From a virus: 64,000 nt of DNA. Shown here piece after piece: positions 4,181 to 40,528 of this stretch. The stretch's first letter is position 1, and each line of letters begins with the position of its first letter. The stretch lies in the IMG/VR virus record IMGVR_UViG_3300033149_000928, positions 20,414 through 84,413 of that record, one strand, 5' to 3'. The notes below the pieces were generated by a model, which saw nothing but the letters and a program-made list of their open reading frames with translations, ran no database searches and was not told where the DNA came from. A program made the position numbers and the translations under genes.

Positions 4181-5793
4181 TTAATCCTCCACAATACAAG
4201 TCTAACTCTACGTATACTTACTTGCTTACCAGATGTAGCTGATGCATAGTCTATATCAAAAGTATGTGCTGCATTAGTTAATGTCCTAATAGCGAAACCA
4301 GCCGTAGCCTCATAGCTATTAGTATCTGTTTGAATATTTTGATTCGCTAAATCAGTAGAATTATCTTCTTGTACACGAAAAGCAACATCAGTGCTAGTAC
4401 CATTTCTAGCTACCTCAACCGACCATCCAACATAGTAATCTCCAGCTGGAATAACACTTGTAAGCATCGTAGCTTTCGTTTGCCAACTTACACTTGTAGT
4501 TGATGATACGCCTTCAGACTTAGCTTCGTGAAATTGTGAACCAAATATAGCGTCTATAGCTGTATTGAGATTACCAAGTTGTACCCGTTTCTTTGCGTTT
4601 GCTACAGCGGAGTCCTCAATAACTATAAGATCAGTTGCTATTGGTGTGGACTTCTCAACAATAGAAACAATCTCACCTGATATATTGTCATGTATAGCAG
4701 TTGCATCAGCACCATCATCTACTGAAGGATTTGGATATGTTCCATTTAAATCCCCACCTGCTGTTCCAGTTGGTATACGGGGTGTAGTAGTATCATCAAG
4801 TGTCGCATCTGTAATCTTAGTATTTAGATTTGCAAGAGTATCTGCTATATGTGCCGACCCACCAAGCGCATGTGTAATACCTGTACTTAAAGTACTAAGT
4901 AAAGCTTTCTTTTTACTATAAGAATCCGCACTATCTTCAATAATAATAATATCTGCATTAACAGGGGTACCCTTCGCACTAATAGCATTAATCTCACCAG
5001 GTATATTATCATGGATAGCTACATGATCGTCGCCATCTGGTAGACCAAGAGTACCTCCACCAGTTATTGAGGTAGTACCAGATACTTCCGTAGCAGTAAG
5101 ATATAACGTACCAGTATCCACATCATAAGCTGTAGATGCCTCAAGTATCGAAGTAACTACGGATACCGTACCAGTACCATCAACCTCAATACCAGTACCA
5201 CTAGGAGCTTCAATATGTTCTACTGTAACAATAATACTACCAGTATCATCAACATATAATGCTGTACCTGCTCCGCTAACCTCAATATGATTAAACTTAG
5301 CGAAGATTTTACCAGTTGTAGCTGCGTCTCCAATAGCGATACCAGTATCAACTAAAGCTTCATGTCCTATGAGTTCAAGTTCACCAGCAGCACAATGAAC
5401 ACCGTTGGCTCCACTTGTTGCTTCAAGGATTTCAATAAATGCTTTTGCTCTACCTGCTCCAGCAGTTTTTGAAATTACTGTTCCACTCGCAACTATACAC
5501 CAATGAGCTAAGAGATATGCTTCATCTCCAAGAATATGATTACCTACAAGCTTAGCAAATGGAGCTTTCAAAACTACATAAGGTGGTATTGTTAAATTCT
5601 CAGTATATATCCCACCATCGACAACTAAAATACCAATAATATTAGAGGCACTAGGAGTATCGCCACTAGCAGCCGCAAGAGCAGCAGTAGCTGTTAAGAA
5701 TGGTTCACTAAGACTTTTGCCTGTATTGGTATCTAAACCATACTTAGCAACATAATATTGCTGTATAGAATCTGGCAATGGAGTATACGCCAT
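4177..5793 (-). CDS. Tail fibre/spike protein with beta-helix-like N-terminal region
   Basis: YYVAKYGLDTNTGKSLSEPFLT is a DUF1565/pectin-lyase-like start. Internal duplication (AIHDNI.GEI..I..K.TP...D.I.IEDSA). GGDLNGTYPNPSV fibre motif. Confidence 0.65.
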   Translation of the reverse strand: MAYTPLPDSIQQYYVAKYGLDTNTGKSLSEPFLTATAALAAASGDTPSASNIIGILVVDGGIYTENLTIPPYVVLKAPFAKLVGNHILGDEAYLLAHWCIVASGTVISKTAGAGRAKAFIEILEATSGANGVHCAAGELELIGHEALVDTGIAIGDAATTGKIFAKFNHIEVSGAGTALYVDDTGSIIVTVEHIEAPSGTGIEVDGTGTVSVVTSILEASTAYDVDTGTLYLTATEVSGTTSITGGGTLGLPDGDDHVAIHDNIPGEINAISAKGTPVNADIIIIEDSADSYSKKKALLSTLSTGITHALGGSAHIADTLANLNTKITDATLDDTTTPRIPTGTAGGDLNGTYPNPSVDDGADATAIHDNISGEIVSIVEKSTPIATDLIVIEDSAVANAKKRVQLGNLNTAIDAIFGSQFHEAKSEGVSSTTSVSWQTKATMLTSVIPAGDYYVGWSVEVARNGTSTDVAFRVQEDNSTDLANQNIQTDTNSYEATAGFAIRTLTNAAHTFDIDYASATSGKQVSIRRVRLVLWRIN

Positions 5794-20356: not shown

Positions 20357-20461
20357 CTTATATTGTCCTTCTGTTTAATAACTTATATTTAGTAACTATG
20401 CTTCTTTTGATTTACTAAATCACAACCTCATTTGACTCACCTGAGCCGCGTAGCGGCTCCC

Positions 20462-34735: not shown

Positions 34736-35421
34736 TCCTCCTTAAACAGTGATCCAGATTCCCAGTCTTTATACTTAGGCTGCACTCCAGCCCAATGTAT
34801 CTTTAATAAAATATCAACCCTCCCATATTTAAAACATCCATCCCTACAAACTGCACAGTGACCAGTCTTATGCTCAAAGGTCTTAGGACAGCGAAAACGT
34901 TTCTCTTTACGTTGTGGCTCTCCAATCCGTACTGTTGACCATTTCTGCTTAACTAATAAACAATATTCTTCCCAAGTAGTAGATGGGTCTATAGAAGCTA
35001 GTACCCTGGCATTACGTCGTGGCATAATAAATTGCCTAATATAACGATCTATTTCAACATCTCTCCATCCTCTTGTTGGTATCCAGAATAACACTTCTGG
35101 ATTATATTGAAGGAGATCAAACACCTTATAGACATCTAAGATTGTAGCAAACGCTTCTCCTCTTGTACAGAGTCTAATGCGTTTAACCTGTTTCTTCTTT
35201 CTTTTAAGAATAACATTTAAAATTAATCCATCTAAATGCTGTCAGAATTTATCATTAATCTTATCGCGAGTCAGCATTCTTTTACCTCGATAATTATAGA
35301 TAGGTATATTATAACAATATAATTTACAGAAATCTGACTGATGCTTACACGATCCACGGCCACGATCAATAGCCCATAATCCTATCTCTTTACAATATCT
35401 AATCGACCCGTAACTCGGCAT
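34732..35421 (-). pseudogene. GP88/radical-SAM-like Cys-motif protein interrupted by one in-frame TGA (35242-35244)
   Basis: Hand translation MPSYGSIRYCKEIGLWAIDRGRGSCKHQSDFCKLYCY...KF*QHLD...RIRLCTRGE...FWIPTR...CP......HCAVCRDGC is one continuous frame. Confidence 0.6.
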
Positions 35422-35809
35422 CCTTCTCTTCCTTCCATTGATTTTGTAAATCAGAAGCTAATTCTAATAGATCATTAGCATATATAGATTGGGCCATTCT
35501 ACCTTCACTAAGAGTCATAAGTGCTTGAATAATTCTTTGTCGCTTAATCTTGGTATCATGATGCTTTTTACCTCTTCGTTTAAGTTTATTCTTTCTATTA
35601 GTAGTAGGATACTTTTCACAAAGTTCTTGATACCATTTTGGATTCGTATTATTAATAACCCTGACACTATGATTACTGTGCTTAGACTCTGGTGCTTTAC
35701 CTAAACCTACTTCCAGTTTATTCTTTTTCAATTGAGTTAACATTATAGATAGAGTTAAACGCAAGTGTTTTGGAGCAATAATCCGTGACCATTTCTGATC
35801 CTTATTCAT
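35399..35809 (-). CDS. Hypothetical basic protein
   Basis: ORF track. Confidence 0.6.
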   Translation of the reverse strand: MNKDQKWSRIIAPKHLRLTLSIMLTQLKKNKLEVGLGKAPESKHSNHSVRVINNTNPKWYQELCEKYPTTNRKNKLKRRGKKHHDTKIKRQRIIQALMTLSEGRMAQSIYANDLLELASDLQNQWKEEKDAELRVD

Positions 35810-35976
35810 TATGGTCCCTTACTACTCTCCCTTAATGCGATGAACAACACGTACTTTTACTACTACAGTCGTACCATTAGGAACACTATCCCCATCCTCA
35901 TGGACAATAGGTATATCCATCCATACCATTCCTCTTTTATTTGTGAACTTATCTTTCTTCTTAATTAACCAACGCA

Positions 35977-36264
35977 TTATTCTCCTCCAAGATTCATATC
36001 GTCATCACTCTCGGTTTTCCTCCATACAGTTAGGATATCATCCTTAACCTTATCTAAAGCACCAAGTAACCAATTCCCACTGTAGTTTCCTGTATCAAAG
36101 TCTACTGTGAATGGTGGACTATGTTTACTTTGATCTGTATTATTCGGATCAATAGCAACTATTGCAAAAGGTATCCTCCTGCGTCTTAACTCCATACAGA
36201 TTTCATCTACCGTGGCTAGTCTTAAATCATTCATGGTCACTGATCCTCCGGCCAAATAAAACAA
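35977..36264 (-). CDS. Hypothetical protein
   Basis: ORF track, likely start at MNDL after GGAGG. Confidence 0.55.
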   Translation of the reverse strand: MFYLAGGSVTMNDLRLATVDEICMELRRRRIPFAIVAIDPNNTDQSKHSPPFTVDFDTGNYSGNWLLGALDKVKDDILTVWRKTESDDDMNLGGE

Positions 36265-36414
36265 TCAGCTTTACCAATAAGGACTGCCCATGCCTCACGT
36301 AGACATTGAAGATATGTCCTATAAGGTATAGGTCTAGCAGGTACCCATTTACCGTTGATTTCTGTCTGAGTTTCTGATGCACATTTCATTAAGTCTTTCA
36401 GTATCCACATACCC

Positions 36415-36720
36415 TTACTCCTTATGGAAGAAGTGCCTATTCCCTTTATTGATAGAACGTAGAACTGGTGTCCTTACTTCCCTTGGCCTTGACTCTTTAA
36501 CCACCACCCATGATTCCCTAGTCCTTATATTATTTTGTATCTTCTTTAATTGTTCTGCTGCCCATTCATTTGCTGCCCATTCATCTTGATAAGGTTTTAT
36601 GTCCACACTATCATGTTCAACCTGCACTCCCCATTGACAGTTTTGACAATCTGTATCAGAACAGGTAGGGCTATATTCAGTATAGTTACTCCAAGGTTTT
36701 GTACAAGTAAAATGTATCAT
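36415..36720 (-). CDS. Hypothetical protein
   Basis: ORF track. Confidence 0.5.
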   Translation of the reverse strand: MIHFTCTKPWSNYTEYSPTCSDTDCQNCQWGVQVEHDSVDIKPYQDEWAANEWAAEQLKKIQNNIRTRESWVVVKESRPREVRTPVLRSINKGNRHFFHKE

Positions 36721-36974
36721 TTACTATCCTTCGCAGCCTCGCCGTTTTGATTTACTAAATCATTATCTTTATCAAATTCTGCAAGCTTCTTATTCAATTG
36801 TTTAAGTTCCAGTTCCTGTTGCTTCTGAATTATCTGCATTTTAAGCGTGGGAGGATAAGTCCTAGATTTCCAATAAGAGAGCAAACAAATAACAAGGAAG
36901 ATAGCTAAAGTATATCTAAACCAATTCTCTTTAATATTTTCAAACATCAATAGCCTCCTTATCAACTTCCACAC
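36717..36974 (-). CDS. Hypothetical single-TM protein
   Basis: TM helix plus coiled coil. Start likely at MFEN. Confidence 0.55.
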   Translation of the reverse strand: MWKLIRRLLMFENIKENWFRYTLAIFLVICLLSYWKSRTYPPTLKMQIIQKQQELELKQLNKKLAEFDKDNDLVNQNGEAAKDSK

Positions 36975-37221
36975 TAAGAGTAAACTTCCTCACAGCATCT
37001 TCCTTATATTGAATACCCATAGCCCTAAGTAAATCACTAGGGTAGAGTCTCCAGGTTATATCCCCACTAGCGACTCCATCTTTCTTCATTTCATCTTGGA
37101 CTTCTCTTTCCATTAACCAAGGGTCTCTACCGCAGATTCTAATGTATTCTTCCTCAGTGACATCCCAACAGAAGCACTCATTATCTCCACTCCATGATCC
37201 AGTTATCGTTATCTCTTTCAT
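36940..37221 (-). CDS. Hypothetical protein
   Basis: AAGGAG RBS. Confidence 0.6.
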   Translation of the reverse strand: MKEITITGSWSGDNECFCWDVTEEEYIRICGRDPWLMEREVQDEMKKDGVASGDITWRLYPSDLLRAMGIQYKEDAVRKFTLSVEVDKEAIDV

Positions 37222-37258
37222 CTTGGCTCCTTAAACATACACATTGATTTAGTAAATC

Positions 37259-37953
37259 ACTCTATAGTACAGTATAAAACTACACCTTACCTTCACACAA
37301 CCTTACTATACACAACTATGCAATACCTTTACATAACAAGACAGCACGGTATAAGACCATACCCTTACTTTACTTTACCTCGCGGTACTGTACTTTACTG
37401 CACCTTCACAACACGTTACTAGAGGCCACTACACAATACCCTCACCTTACCCTCACCTAACAAAACACAACATGACAAGACTATACCATTACCAGACAGT
37501 ACACTACCATGCGCTACGGTGCCTCACCTAACTTCACCTTTACCCAACACTATGGGACAGTACACTACCTTGACAATACCACACAGTATTTTACGTAACA
37601 CTACTACACCATCGCGATACTTCGCCAGACTATACCATAACCACACAGTACCATAACCGTACCGGACAAGATATGACCTTACCATACCATTACCCTACGT
37701 AACCTAACTATACCTTTACTGCACAAAACGAACTAGACCCAACATCGCCATAACGGGACTACGCGTGACTACGCGTGACTACGCGTGACTACACCATTAC
37801 TCGACCCAACCGAACCCCACAGTACCATACCTTTACATCACCTAACCCAACCGCACCATTACAAGACTTCACACCAGATAACTATGCCTTACCATTACTC
37901 TACCCAACACCACCCCTCTACACCATTACTAAACCAAACGTGACCGTACCATC
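37259..37953 (-). ncRNA. Putative guide-RNA array: 114 NNN-GT pentamers in 21 hexamer-delimited units (VIPR-like)
   Basis: Minus strand reads GATGGT ACGGT CACGT TTGGT TTAGT AATGGT GTAGA GGGGT GGTGT TGGGT AGAGT AATGGT... The full hand parse accounts for all 695 bp with a single 4-mer exception. No minus-strand ORF of 60 aa or more. RNA status is inferred. Confidence 0.75.
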
Positions 37954-38584
37954 ACTTCTTCTCTTTCTCGCCACCCTTCTCTCCCACAATCTCATAACTG
38001 ATCCGACCCTTACCACTATTATGCCACTGTCCAAGGGCATTGCGCTTACCATAGTCAAGCCACTCAATGATGTTTGGCCTTAGTTTCTCGTCATAGGTTT
38101 TAATAGTGAATACCAATATATTACCAGCCGGAACGGTTTCGCTACGTGCTAGCGCAACACGCTCACCCTTTGGACCTTGTATCCTTAGTGGACGTATGCA
38201 GATACCCATAACAGGAGGATTACCATCAGGCCCGATAATCATAATCTTTCTCGGAGCGATGAAAATTAATCCATCAATGATCTTCTTGTAAGCAGTCATT
38301 CCTTTACTCTTCGTACCCTCTACCCTACGCAAAGCACTACAGGCATTCTTGAAGAACCCCTTAATCAGATAATCATAGATGAAAGGCTGACCGTTATCAT
38401 CACGATGGAAAACTGTTGTCTGCTTCTTTACTTCGTCCTCGACTTCGGGTAAGGTTGACACTTCATCTGGATCAACACCCTCAGGACGTTTTGAGGCGAT
38501 GAACTCTTCATAGAGTTCTGGATTCGCACTGGCTGTCCCAAGCATCTCCTCAATCAAGGTCGCTTTGATCTGCATCTCAAACAT
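37952..38584 (-). CDS. Stand-alone RAMP / Cas7-like protein (Vipr-like candidate RNA-guided effector)
   Basis: N-terminal strand ATLIEEMLG, PFIYDYLIKGFFKNAC helix (compare P.I....IKG..R), SETVPAG....FTI, and a C-terminal Gly-rich loop LGQWHNSGKGRI. No other cas genes in the window. Confidence 0.8.
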   Translation of the reverse strand: MFEMQIKATLIEEMLGTASANPELYEEFIASKRPEGVDPDEVSTLPEVEDEVKKQTTVFHRDDNGQPFIYDYLIKGFFKNACSALRRVEGTKSKGMTAYKKIIDGLIFIAPRKIMIIGPDGNPPVMGICIRPLRIQGPKGERVALARSETVPAGNILVFTIKTYDEKLRPNIIEWLDYGKRNALGQWHNSGKGRISYEIVGEKGGEKEKK

Positions 38585-38637
38585 GGTTTCTCCTTCAAAA
38601 GAAACACAAACAAACGGCTACGCCACATATTGATTTA

Positions 38638-38907
38638 CTAAATCAAAATTTCAAACACATGAACTACTAAAGTGCCCTTCATCATTTGGAAAGTACCAAT
38701 ATACTTCTTTATATCTGTATGGTTAACTTCATGTCCAGTACCGTGTAATGCAAAGGTTCTTCTTTCATTTTCCTTTGAGTCATCAACTAAAACCCAAAGA
38801 CAAGGTATACCATTCTGCATTTGAACAGTAAGAATTTTAGAATTCTTTGGCATTAGGATATCTAAAGTGTCATTTGTTTCTAGTGGATATTTCCATATTG
38901 TTTTCAT
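38638..38907 (-). CDS. Conserved phage hypothetical protein
   Basis: MKTIWKYPL...MP...IL.VQ.Q...CLW..V...GTGH...YIGTFQ...VHVFE is a widespread phage family. Confidence 0.75.
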   Translation of the reverse strand: MKTIWKYPLETNDTLDILMPKNSKILTVQMQNGIPCLWVLVDDSKENERRTFALHGTGHEVNHTDIKKYIGTFQMMKGTLVVHVFEILI

Positions 38908-39128
38908 CAGTATCGTCCCTCCCGCGAGTGAGAATGACTATATACAAATTCCTCAAGTTTTCTTACTCTTTCCTCCATTGTTAAAGCATCAATAGCCTCA
39001 AAATATTCATTATGTTTTTCTTTATTGGTCTCTGCCTTACAATTAAAACACATATCACTTCGTGGTCGGACTGAATGATGTGTCTCCTCACACCCTATAC
39101 ATGTCCAGTGTGTTATATATGCCATCAA
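38907..39128 (-). CDS. Hypothetical Zn-finger protein
   Basis: CIGC and CFNC. Confidence 0.6.
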   Translation of the reverse strand: MMAYITHWTCIGCEETHHSVRPRSDMCFNCKAETNKEKHNEYFEAIDALTMEERVRKLEEFVYSHSHSREGRY

Positions 39129-39134
39129 TATCTC

Positions 39135-39320
39135 CTAACCAATTGAGTAACCAATGTAATGTGGCCACGTGAAAAACAGAACAGCATAATGAGCTATTCT
39201 ATGTTTCTCTTTGACTGTATCACACGTAGATTGATTCATACCACAAGCAATTAACCATCCAATGATCCATATGAAGATCATTAGTAGTTGTAGATCACTT
39301 AGCATTATGGTTCCTTTCAC
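39135..39320 (-). CDS. Small membrane protein
   Basis: Two hydrophobic segments and a WP motif. Confidence 0.5.
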   Translation of the reverse strand: MKGTIMLSDLQLLMIFIWIIGWLIACGMNQSTCDTVKEKHRIAHYAVLFFTWPHYIGYSIG

Positions 39321-39544
39321 TTCAAATATACAAACTCCTTAACCTTCCCTTGCCATCTGTATTCAAGAATACCCACACCCTCCATAGCGTTGAGAGAGTC
39401 AAACAGAACACAGACCTCAAGTTTCTCCTCTCCGATCTTCACTAATTCCGCATATAACTCCGTGACAAGACCTACCATCTTCATACCACCGGAATGCTTA
39501 TTCAGTATCTCCTTTATTAATTTCTGGACTTGTTTTGATATCAT
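39317..39544 (-). CDS. Hypothetical protein
   Basis: GGAGG RBS. Confidence 0.55.
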   Translation of the reverse strand: MISKQVQKLIKEILNKHSGGMKMVGLVTELYAELVKIGEEKLEVCVLFDSLNAMEGVGILEYRWQGKVKEFVYLK

Positions 39545-39565
39545 GTAGTGTCCCTCCCTACTGTC

Positions 39566-40528
39566 CTATCGTTCTCTACCCATCCCAGGTATATCCTCTG
39601 GATTCATCGGACCTGTATCCAGGAAATCACACCTTGCCTTATTATCCTCTAGTGATAACCCCGTAAAGAAGTGTCCACTATGACAACGCTCCCAGATTTT
39701 ACAAGCATGATTGAATAGCTCTGTCTGATAACGCTGACTCACGGTACAACGATGCTGTGCTATACCATATACGTTTTGATTACCACAGATAATCTGGTCG
39801 ATGGCTACGATGAAGTCACTCCCCACTTCCTCCCCTAACAACCAACCATAGATTGCCAACTGCCTACCCCAGTCCTTATTCACTAGCTCAAGGGTATGTG
39901 TTAAATTAATTTTGATACCATGTAGGAAACCCTCAAACACATCCTTATGCTGCCGTCTCTTATATGTGAGGGCATCAGCTAGGATATTAAGATAGCCCTT
40001 ACATGGGGAAGGCTTCTTCTTACTAAAGTATCCATTGACCTTCCAATCCAGGATCACTCGACCACCATCCTTGTGCGTGAAGTACAAGTCAGGCTTACCG
40101 AGTAGAGTAGGTGGACCTCCCACTTGATTTGTTAAATCACAGAACTGACTACTAATAGCTCCTTCAAGTTTGAACTCAAACTTAGCATCAGTGCAATCAC
40201 CAAGCATAATCAAGAGATCAGCAGCCGCACCATACTTAACATAGAAGTCGAAAACCTTCTTCCCGATCTTCCATGCTTCATCCCGATGCTGTTCTTCAAC
40301 TTGATCCTCGAAAATTGTTCTACGCTCGAATTGTGGGTCGTCACCCATCTTTAGCTCTTTATACAGATAGCTTTTGATGAAGGCATCGAATGCACTACCA
40401 ACAGCCATAACTAATAGCTGTGGGTCACGTGGGGTTTTCGTATCAGCAAGATACCTTTCATAGAAGTCCTCTTCATTTGTATCGAAACACTTGATACCAC
40501 TTGGCGACAGGTACGGGATAGTTCTCAT
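39566..40528 (-). CDS. PD-(D/E)XK family exonuclease
   Basis: YLSPSGIK, GSAFD, GKPD...ILDWK and QLAIY motifs. Confidence 0.75.
   Translation of the reverse strand: MRTIPYLSPSGIKCFDTNEEDFYERYLADTKTPRDPQLLVMAVGSAFDAFIKSYLYKELKMGDDPQFERRTIFEDQVEEQHRDEAWKIGKKVFDFYVKYGAAADLLIMLGDCTDAKFEFKLEGAISSQFCDLTNQVGGPPTLLGKPDLYFTHKDGGRVILDWKVNGYFSKKKPSPCKGYLNILADALTYKRRQHKDVFEGFLHGIKINLTHTLELVNKDWGRQLAIYGWLLGEEVGSDFIVAIDQIICGNQNVYGIAQHRCTVSQRYQTELFNHACKIWERCHSGHFFTGLSLEDNKARCDFLDTGPMNPEDIPGMGRER

Follow-up and report, generated by a model that had tools for sequence, protein, structure and literature searches.

A pentamer array adjoining a small RAMP-like phage gene is probably a vrRNA guide array of a VIPR system, with hexamers between its guides

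The 64,000-nucleotide stretch of viral DNA analysed here, called the window below, covers positions 20,414 to 84,413 of IMG/VR virus record IMGVR_UViG_3300033149_000928, a complete genome of 84,413 bp with direct terminal repeats. Between two genes on its minus strand lies a non-coding segment (37259-37953), read on that same strand, which is written as a long run of pentamers interrupted at intervals by hexamers, and which adjoins a gene for a 210-residue protein. We conclude that this segment is probably a vrRNA guide array of a phage VIPR system, in which the hexamers separate individual guides. VIPR, a CRISPR-related phage DNA-silencing system, was first described in 2026 preprints; in the part of the principal one available to us, it consists of a ~20-kD ancestral RAMP protein, Vipr, and of vrRNAs made of tandem pentamers, with GGY fixed and NN variable, and it comes in seven types (10.64898/2026.04.26.720920). 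Three observations carry our conclusion: the anatomy of the array, its conservation across the family, and the cassette-like evolution of its blocks.

On the minus strand the array counts 239 G, 234 T, 152 A and 70 C. The GT-dinucleotide indicator yields a single sharp spectral peak at a period of 5.15 (power 9.05) with a harmonic at 2.57 (power 4.58), the remaining peaks all being below 1, and its autocorrelation is 75 at lag 5 versus 72 at lag 36. Parsing by dynamic programming (frame xGYNN, 3-nt offset, minus strand) resolves the array into 134 units, namely 113 pentamers of the form xGYNN, 20 internal hexamers and one 4-mer, arranged in 21 blocks of 1 to 10 units, mostly 5 to 8. Pentamer position 2 is G in 105/113 and position 3 is T in 102/113 and C in 10/113 (Y in 112/113); position 1 is G in just 47/113, and the remaining positions are variable. 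A preliminary description, made from the letters of the sequence, had listed 21 hexamers in this segment (AATGGT six times, AAAGGT four times, and rarer types), the 21st being the GATGGT that overlaps the vipr stop codon, and had given the number of pentamers between them as 4,5,6,4,6,8,6,4,6,2,4,7,5,9,6,1,6,7,6,6,6. Our own parse returned the identical series, and our lists of hexamers and following units agree with its types and counts. Its claim that the units, with one 4-mer, sum exactly to the length of the segment also holds (21x6 + 113x5 + 4 = 695). The array is unique in the 84,413-bp genome, where no second one was found.

At each of the window's 21 junctions between blocks, the register moves by +1 on a GG doublet (Table 1). 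Position 5 of the hexamer is A in 20/20 and position 6 is T in 10, A in 7, G in 3 and C in 0. The unit that follows is G-initial in 20/20 and GGT-initial in 19/20, compared with 30/112 GGT-initial units after pentamers, and the first variable base (N4) of a block's first unit is a purine in 21/21; the junction consensus in the window is N-A-D, then GGY-R. Bases fixed to this extent cannot encode arbitrary targets. When the array is searched for direct repeats, the families obtained cluster around the same junction sequence, the best of them having 68-92% identity. The types of hexamer drift along the array, as the preliminary description had noticed: T at position 6 is found nearer the gene (Mann-Whitney p = 0.007), and G at position 4 farther from it (p = 0.019), in post hoc tests with n = 20. 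This drift is real but is not evidence of CRISPR-like polarised growth.

Table 1. Features of the array and the adjoining gene (window coordinates)
Feature	Position	Strand	Basis and remarks
vipr-like gene, 210 aa, small stand-alone RAMP-like	37952..38584	-	Open reading frame; C-terminal glycine-rich loop LGQWHNSGKGR
Candidate vrRNA array	37259..37953	-	Begins on vipr stop codon; ends 41 nt before the ATG of the next gene (37221)
First junction GATGGT, overlapping vipr stop codon TGA	37948..37953	-	Sequence; parse offset 3
Register-shift hexamer AGTAAT, then GGTGT	37925..37930	-	Parse
Register-shift hexamer AGTAAT, then GGTAA	37894..37899	-	Parse
Register-shift hexamer TGTAAT, then GGTGC	37858..37863	-	Parse
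Register-shift hexamer TGTAAA, then GGTAT	37832..37837	-	Parse
Register-shift hexamer AGTAAT, then GGTGT	37796..37801	-	Parse
Register-shift hexamer CGTTAT, then GGCGA	37750..37755	-	Parse
Register-shift hexamer AGTAAA, then GGTAT	37715..37720	-	Parse
Register-shift hexamer GGTAAT, then GGTAT	37689..37694	-	Parse
Register-shift hexamer GGTTAT, then GGTAC	37653..37658	-	Parse
Register-shift hexamer GGTTAT, then GGTAT	37637..37642	-	Parse
Register-shift hexamer CGCGAT, then GGTGT	37611..37616	-	Parse
Register-shift hexamer TGTCAA, then GGTAG	37570..37575	-	Parse
Register-shift hexamer GGTAAA, then GGTGA	37539..37544	-	Parse
Register-shift hexamer GGTAAT, then GGTAT	37488..37493	-	Parse
Register-shift hexamer GGTGAG, then GGTAA	37452..37457	-	Parse
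Register-shift hexamer GGTGAG, then GGTAT	37441..37446	-	Parse
Register-shift hexamer TGTGAA, then GGTGC	37405..37410	-	Parse
Register-shift hexamer AGTAAG, then GGTAT	37364..37369	-	Parse
Register-shift hexamer TGTAAA, then GGTAT	37328..37333	-	Parse
Register-shift hexamer TGTGAA, then GGTAA	37292..37297	-	Parse
4-mer AGTT	starts 37734	-	Dynamic-programming parse
10-nt tandem repeat, 3.6 copies, within one block	37757..37792	-	Tandem Repeats Finder and parse
11-nt tandem duplication, 2 copies	37437..37458	-	Tandem Repeats Finder and parse

How could a hexamer delimit a guide? The unit of the window, Y-N-N-x-G, is the YNNNG form, which the available text of the principal preprint lists among its alternative repeats ('NNNGG, YNNNG, and NNNNG'); the same text includes 'staggered arrays with overlapping vrRNAs' among the array forms, and the legend of its fig. 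S18 has consecutive staggered vrRNAs run from positions overlapping by 1 nt (10.64898/2026.04.26.720920). Where two registers of pentamers share one base, a parse that runs through both sees a hexamer. In the junction ...T-A-A-T-G-G-T-A-T..., for example, the first G ends an upstream Y-N-N-x-G and also opens a downstream G-G-Y-N-N.

From this arrangement we infer transcription of the array, protein binding, cleavage at the junctions and DNA targeting, as follows. The array would be transcribed together with the Vipr-like gene that ends at its start; a scan of this gene, the array and the next gene gave weak terminator-like sites alone, one of them within the array (37363-37343), and no convincing terminator between the three. 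By analogy with the type II VIPR of phage SUSP1, one protomer would occupy each pentamer, holding the fixed G-Y and offering the variable positions to double-stranded DNA for gapped pairing. The hexamer would shift the pentamer register by +1, the first G of the doublet being in phase with the upstream register and the second with the downstream one; since each G then belongs to a different register, a filament in one register could not continue past the junction. The N-A-D, GGY-R junction would end one guide and start the next, with cleavage predicted there, and the 695-nt transcript would be divided into 21 short guides, each as long as its block. As a separate observation, GGTAT is the commonest first unit after window hexamers (8/21), and in SUSP1 (L091:27621-27966) GGTAT is the last unit before the tail in 3/4 vrRNAs; a conserved GGYAT unit could therefore mark the 3' end of a guide rather than its 5' end.

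The association of gene and array is widespread. We surveyed 80 viral, 13 metagenome and 80 genome loci, and found a G-periodic array on the same strand, at most 2.5 kb from the homologous gene, in 158/173 (viral 78/80, metagenome 10/13, genome 70/80), several negatives being short contigs. At a stricter threshold (above the 99.9th background percentile) 74/80 viral loci are positive; in these the array is upstream in 41 and downstream in 33, and 58 of them have a peak period of 5.12-5.18. Detectors based on GT and on GY found arrays at few homologous loci (9/87 and 20/87, respectively), and a permissive scorer extended through entire GC-rich loci.

This linkage bears on two alternatives. The available part of another preprint describes satellite-encoded stand-alone vrRNAs that redirect phage VIPR to decoy sites (10.64898/2026.10.15.759431), and the array could similarly make decoy or sponge RNAs, titrating or redirecting the Vipr of a competitor instead of guiding the phage's own protein. 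We consider this highly unlikely, given that the array starts at the stop codon of its own vipr, on the same strand, and that the two are linked at so many loci. Alternatively, the signal may reside in the DNA: twice 5.15 is 10.3 bp, a helical repeat, coherent over 695 bp, as if GT/AC were phasing a DNA-wrapping or packaging protein. No strand preference would be predicted in that case, whereas the array is co-oriented with the gene in the same 158 loci; the period arises from discrete hexamers with a motif of their own, not from smooth drift; and the equivalent SUSP1 tracts are, in the preprint text at hand, RNAs that co-purify with the protein (10.64898/2026.04.26.720920). We give such a DNA-level function very little credence.

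The junction is conserved as well. In a survey of 145 distinct arrays with 2264 hexamers, from which duplicates and arrays with fewer than five hexamers had been dropped, GG opens the following unit in 83% of cases after hexamers versus 17% after pentamers, and the enrichment is found in 144/145 arrays, with the reservation that re-registering 6-nt xGG units to a GG start biases the GG-after-hexamer count toward the junction. Position 5 of the hexamer is A in 69%, versus 38% by comparison. A conserved hexamer in homologous arrays, on whose existence the preliminary description had let its proposal depend, is therefore present. The sole exception to the GG enrichment is the L005/L104 lineage (121-kb contig, 36% protein identity, the relative farthest removed), where the junction is GTAWA, then TGTAT, with a T-G doublet; the L005 arrays flank the gene on both sides (L005:747-1908 and 4830-5184). 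A jumbo-phage relative, on the contig of L003 (IMGVR_UViG_3300035520_000350, 243 kb), carries an array of several kb downstream of vipr (L017:5740-10397), greatly exceeding the 695 nt of the window's array, with 84 hexamers and less uniform junctions, GG following only 50% of them.

Hexamers are, moreover, regularly spaced. In the window the variance of the hexamer-to-hexamer spacing is 3.6 versus a mean of 33.0 on permuting the order of units (0/2000 permutations as low), and the 16 other long arrays tested are, without exception, evenly spaced too (P <= 0.037). Across 146 arrays, the number of units per hexamer has a median of 6.6. Block length is lineage-specific, with mean sizes of 4.9 units in L014, 5.6 in L041, 6.5 in the window and 6.9 in L024, within a tested range of 4.9 to 7.4. 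The preliminary description had taken the modal block for a unit of 36 nt, the size of a crRNA; its series stands for the window, but the size is a property of the lineage.

According to the structure preprint, in the part available, one turn of the SUSP1 filament holds six protomers when it is free and five on DNA (10.64898/2026.04.26.720927). The very regular spacing, and a median near six, the protomer number for a turn of the binary filament in SUSP1, would thus also suit a VIPR RNA that is left uncut: one continuous filament would coat the whole transcript, and the extra base, roughly one per helical turn, would be a geometric adjustment. It is in keeping with this that no tail, hairpin or ribozyme was found between blocks; an Rfam search of window positions 35000-40000 gave no match at E<=1, and folding of the array RNA against shuffles revealed no special fold (z = -1.54, 3/20 shuffles folding equally well). 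However, in our parser the four published vrRNA tracts of SUSP1 (one upstream of the gene, three downstream) consist of 12-15 in-phase units each, with 0 hexamers, so that filament geometry does not require the register slip. Furthermore, block size varies between 1 and 10 units within the window itself and its mean differs between lineages, the junction is conserved in sequence and not in length alone, and the turnover of single blocks between relatives, described next, would break a long guide. On balance, an uncut continuous filament seems unlikely to us, compared with hexamers that bound separate guides.

The window's own array has no close relative among the loci: one protein homologue (P0002) is 82% identical, but the best relatives with DNA are 50-56% identical. 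Block gain and loss was therefore studied in other clades. In 11 clades with Vipr proteins at least 80% identical, arrays share ordered blocks, with insertions and deletions of whole blocks, swaps and duplications. The block strings of L033, L034, L056 and L054, such as '....ABCDEFGH.IJK.L' and '.....ABCD.FGHMNIJOP.L', illustrate the replacement, insertion and loss of whole blocks in otherwise collinear arrays. Turnover affects the gene-proximal end in some clades and the distal end in others, as well as internal blocks, with no consistent polarity. The CRISPR-like polarity that the preliminary description had read into the hexamer drift, and the gain or loss of units at one end that it looked for in related phages, are thus contradicted. 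In one group (L021, L022, L025, L027, L029 and L030), vipr has an array on either side, the upstream one nearly identical and the downstream one varying block by block; the upstream array of a seventh clade member, L038, differs from the other six.

To what extent do the boundaries of such exchanges coincide with hexamers? BLAST homology blocks between related arrays have 1065 distinct internal endpoints, of which 449 lie close to a junction (starts 0-8 nt ahead of it, ends 0-8 nt past it), versus 284.6 +/- 13.9 under random placement (maximum 333 in 1000 draws), with two cautions: this asymmetric window was picked once the first histogram had been viewed, and the endpoints have ancestry in common, which overstates their independence. 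Counting symmetrically, within +/-3 nt, gives 293/1065, versus 238 +/- 13.6. These comparisons support the view that hexamer-bounded blocks behave as cassettes between related phages. The earlier proposal that hexamers separate guides draws its support from comparison between arrays, namely from the regular spacing, the shared junction and the cassette behaviour. That description did not name VIPR; it took the hexamers for processing sites or for start/stop marks of a filament, and they may be either.

Could replication slippage in a simple repeat have produced the array, leaving it without function? Two tandem duplications, one of 10 and one of 11 nt, do occur inside it (Table 1): the former produces a periodic guide code, with variable dinucleotides alternating GT/CA, and the latter yields the two-unit block and both GAG hexamers. 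Slippage would not, however, keep two fixed positions while the others vary freely, and the same grammar is found in 144/145 arrays even though their Vipr proteins are just 36-56% identical to that of the window, which leaves this explanation almost no credibility. A CRISPR array with its own repeats was also considered, and rejected because no repeat of that kind was found: Tandem Repeats Finder gives only 10-, 11- and 15-nt repeats, and no repeat of 25-40 nt.

Turning to the protein, its sequence makes it a candidate RAMP and Vipr. It has no match in Pfam, PHROG or NCBIfam. Homologues number 799 in a large protein collection, 513 in viral contigs and 157 in prokaryotic genome contigs, the last belonging to gut Clostridia, Coriobacteriia, Bacteroidota, Planctomycetota and one Promethearchaeota metagenome-assembled genome, with the closest 56% identical. 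The family thus occurs in bins of phyla far apart (Acidobacteriota also among them; the Asgard archaeal bin is L189, WJMJ01000154.1), bins that possibly hold viral contigs. By blastn the window DNA has no match among cultured phages, and tblastn gives matches to just 4 uncultured faecal phage records. Compared with the PDB, the family profile finds Cas7 chains 21bh/8yhd (E=0.017) and Csm4 (E=0.2), in both cases on the loop rich in glycine (G-loop). The ESM Atlas model of the protein is a confident one, with a predicted template-modelling score (pTM) of 0.80; the clusters structurally closest to it are all viral and unnamed, and the nearest named cluster is a RAMP, at 0.77, which we treat as a lead only.

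For comparison we located the SUSP1 Vipr at KT454805.2 28474-29061, minus strand (ALH47069.1), where 12/13 residues named in the available text of the structure preprint agree (10.64898/2026.04.26.720927); in the PDB it is matched by 36pp, titled 'SUSP1 Vipr protein' (E = 2.2e-130). A minor discrepancy is that the preprint has T175 contacting Y3, where the GenBank protein (L091:28474-29061) has V at 175. The window family aligns with this protein over the C-terminal glycine-rich loop only (E = 0.0032). In the hhalign alignment, Q186, W187 and H188 of the window protein (the last being R in most of the family) stand opposite SUSP1 D177, W178 and R179, and the structure preprint, as far as available, reports that G1 is read by D177, with W178 stacking on G2 and R179 holding Y3 (10.64898/2026.04.26.720927). 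In this two-family comparison, the change of Asp to Gln at the D177 position fits the lost conservation of G1 here and the retention of G2 and Y3; it would explain the freed G1 of the window family.

Besides the parsing bias and the choice of endpoint window mentioned above, several points weigh against the array being a staggered set of guides. First, the homology to Vipr is weak: hhalign against a 27-member SUSP1 Vipr family gives E=0.0012 and a probability of 19.6%, on the G-loop only, both SUSP1 alignments having probabilities of 10-20%. The principal preprint, in the text available, states that RAMPs are not recoverable through sequence search (10.64898/2026.04.26.720920). Second, the equivalence of the hexamer with a 1-nt stagger relies on the wording of a figure legend, and small RNA sequencing confirmed, in the same text, only the other two array types and not the staggered one (10.64898/2026.04.26.720920). 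Third, where the placement of a hexamer is ambiguous, it can be resolved the other way; a G-only parse puts the extra base on the opposite side of the junction and gives a misleading frequency of 0.04 for 'G1 after hexamer'. Fourth, no conserved accessory (vap) gene accompanies the array, the 14 neighbouring open reading frames having homologues in 0/93 related loci (E<=1e-4). As no neighbour recurs across these loci, the mobile unit would be the gene plus the array. VIPR loci 'typically' have vap, and the main text of the preprint names vap genes for types II-VII only (10.64898/2026.04.26.720920), so that a family lacking vap would fit VIPR type I, by elimination.

The remaining two points concern targets. 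The published rule, in the portion of the preprint available, is that the variable NN pair with double-stranded DNA and that every third target base is skipped (10.64898/2026.04.26.720920). No natural target was found, either in the local set or in scans of viral contigs. Against a 1.68-Mb local set, 96 blocks of at least 7 units gave 0 perfect matches at skip 1 and a single one at each of skips 0, 2 and 3, where shuffled controls gave 10, 5, 3 and 10 matches at skips 0-3 (sum of 3 shuffles). In viral contigs the 16-base core of the longest block had 4 matches, none of which extended, and an 18-base pattern from the block of the 10-nt repeat matched 10 stretches, all simple hexanucleotide repeats (microsatellites). 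A code with three bases per step did no better, with 1 full-length match versus 1-4 in controls, and 177 14-mer seeds versus 177 and 166 in shuffled sets. In a comparison for codon-likeness, the variable dinucleotides of 84 internal units have log-likelihoods of -3.94 to -4.18 bits under every model. Finally, under the two-base rule blocks of 5-7 repeats specify ~10-14 bases, which is short for a specific guide; it also means that target searches based on uniqueness have little power.

How does the locus compare with known systems? With the staggered YNNNG VIPR, as described in the preprint text available, it shares a small stand-alone RAMP-like phage gene adjoined by a long pentamer tract on the same strand, two fixed positions with the rest variable, a one-base offset, and the lack of CRISPR repeats and cas genes (10.64898/2026.04.26.720920); searched against Pfam, the neighbouring reading frames match no Cas families. 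With the type II VIPR of SUSP1 it has in common G/T-rich GGT-NN pentamers on the strand of the gene, a protein of ~200 residues, the glycine loop G-x-G-x-W-R...G-R-F, and its location in a phage genome. SUSP1 differs in that its four vrRNAs, of 12-15 repeats, are separate and, in the published account as available, each capped by a ~40-nt structured tail, that G1 is conserved, whereas in the window it is free except at block starts, and that it has vap1, which has no counterpart found at the window locus. Likeness to Class 1 CRISPR lies in a RAMP inferred to polymerise, like Cas7, on guide RNA with periodic base flipping, and in short variable cassettes with a conserved separator and turnover between relatives. 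In contrast, the period of the window is 5 nt and not 6, the separator is a one-base shift with ~6 conserved bases and not a 25-40-nt repeat, and cas1/cas2, a leader and consistent polarity are lacking. TIGR-Tas systems resemble the array in that they have guide units of ~36 nt in phage-associated loci without CRISPR repeats; their Tas proteins, however, carry a Nop domain and each unit holds two short spacers, whereas the window has a RAMP-like protein and guides written in pentamers.

As to the remaining surroundings of the locus, the gene directly upstream of vipr (window 38638-38907, minus strand) encodes a DUF7352 / phrog_3848 protein, and this gene is not beside vipr in any of the 93 related loci.

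A bolder possibility, which we put forward as doubtful, is that a one-base register slip alone could end one filament and seed the next. The guides would then be ultra-short, about one helical turn (5-7 protomers), and need no tail, ribozyme or repeat handle; they may even remain strung on one uncut transcript, as a multi-guide silencer resembling beads on a string. Blocks would be exchanged like CRISPR spacers without acquisition machinery, and the replacement of D by Q would free G1 as a third variable base except at filament starts. The junction consensus, the block-length statistics, the cassette turnover and the hexamer-free type II tracts do not appear in the preprint texts, as far as these were available, and the supplements may hold them; in those texts 'hexa' occurs 0 times and 'staggered' 3 times in 10.64898/2026.04.26.720920, and 'staggered' 0 times in 10.64898/2026.04.26.720927.

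VIPR, a class of RNA-guided DNA binders only months old, has been proposed in the available preprint text as the ancestor of the CRISPR RAMPs. If our reading is correct, the window would offer a compact and complete example of its staggered form: one gene and one 695-nt array of 21 blocks in an 84-kb phage. The picture of what VIPR is remains unchanged by these results, and the comparison between arrays makes it testable how guides may be delimited without tails or ribozymes.

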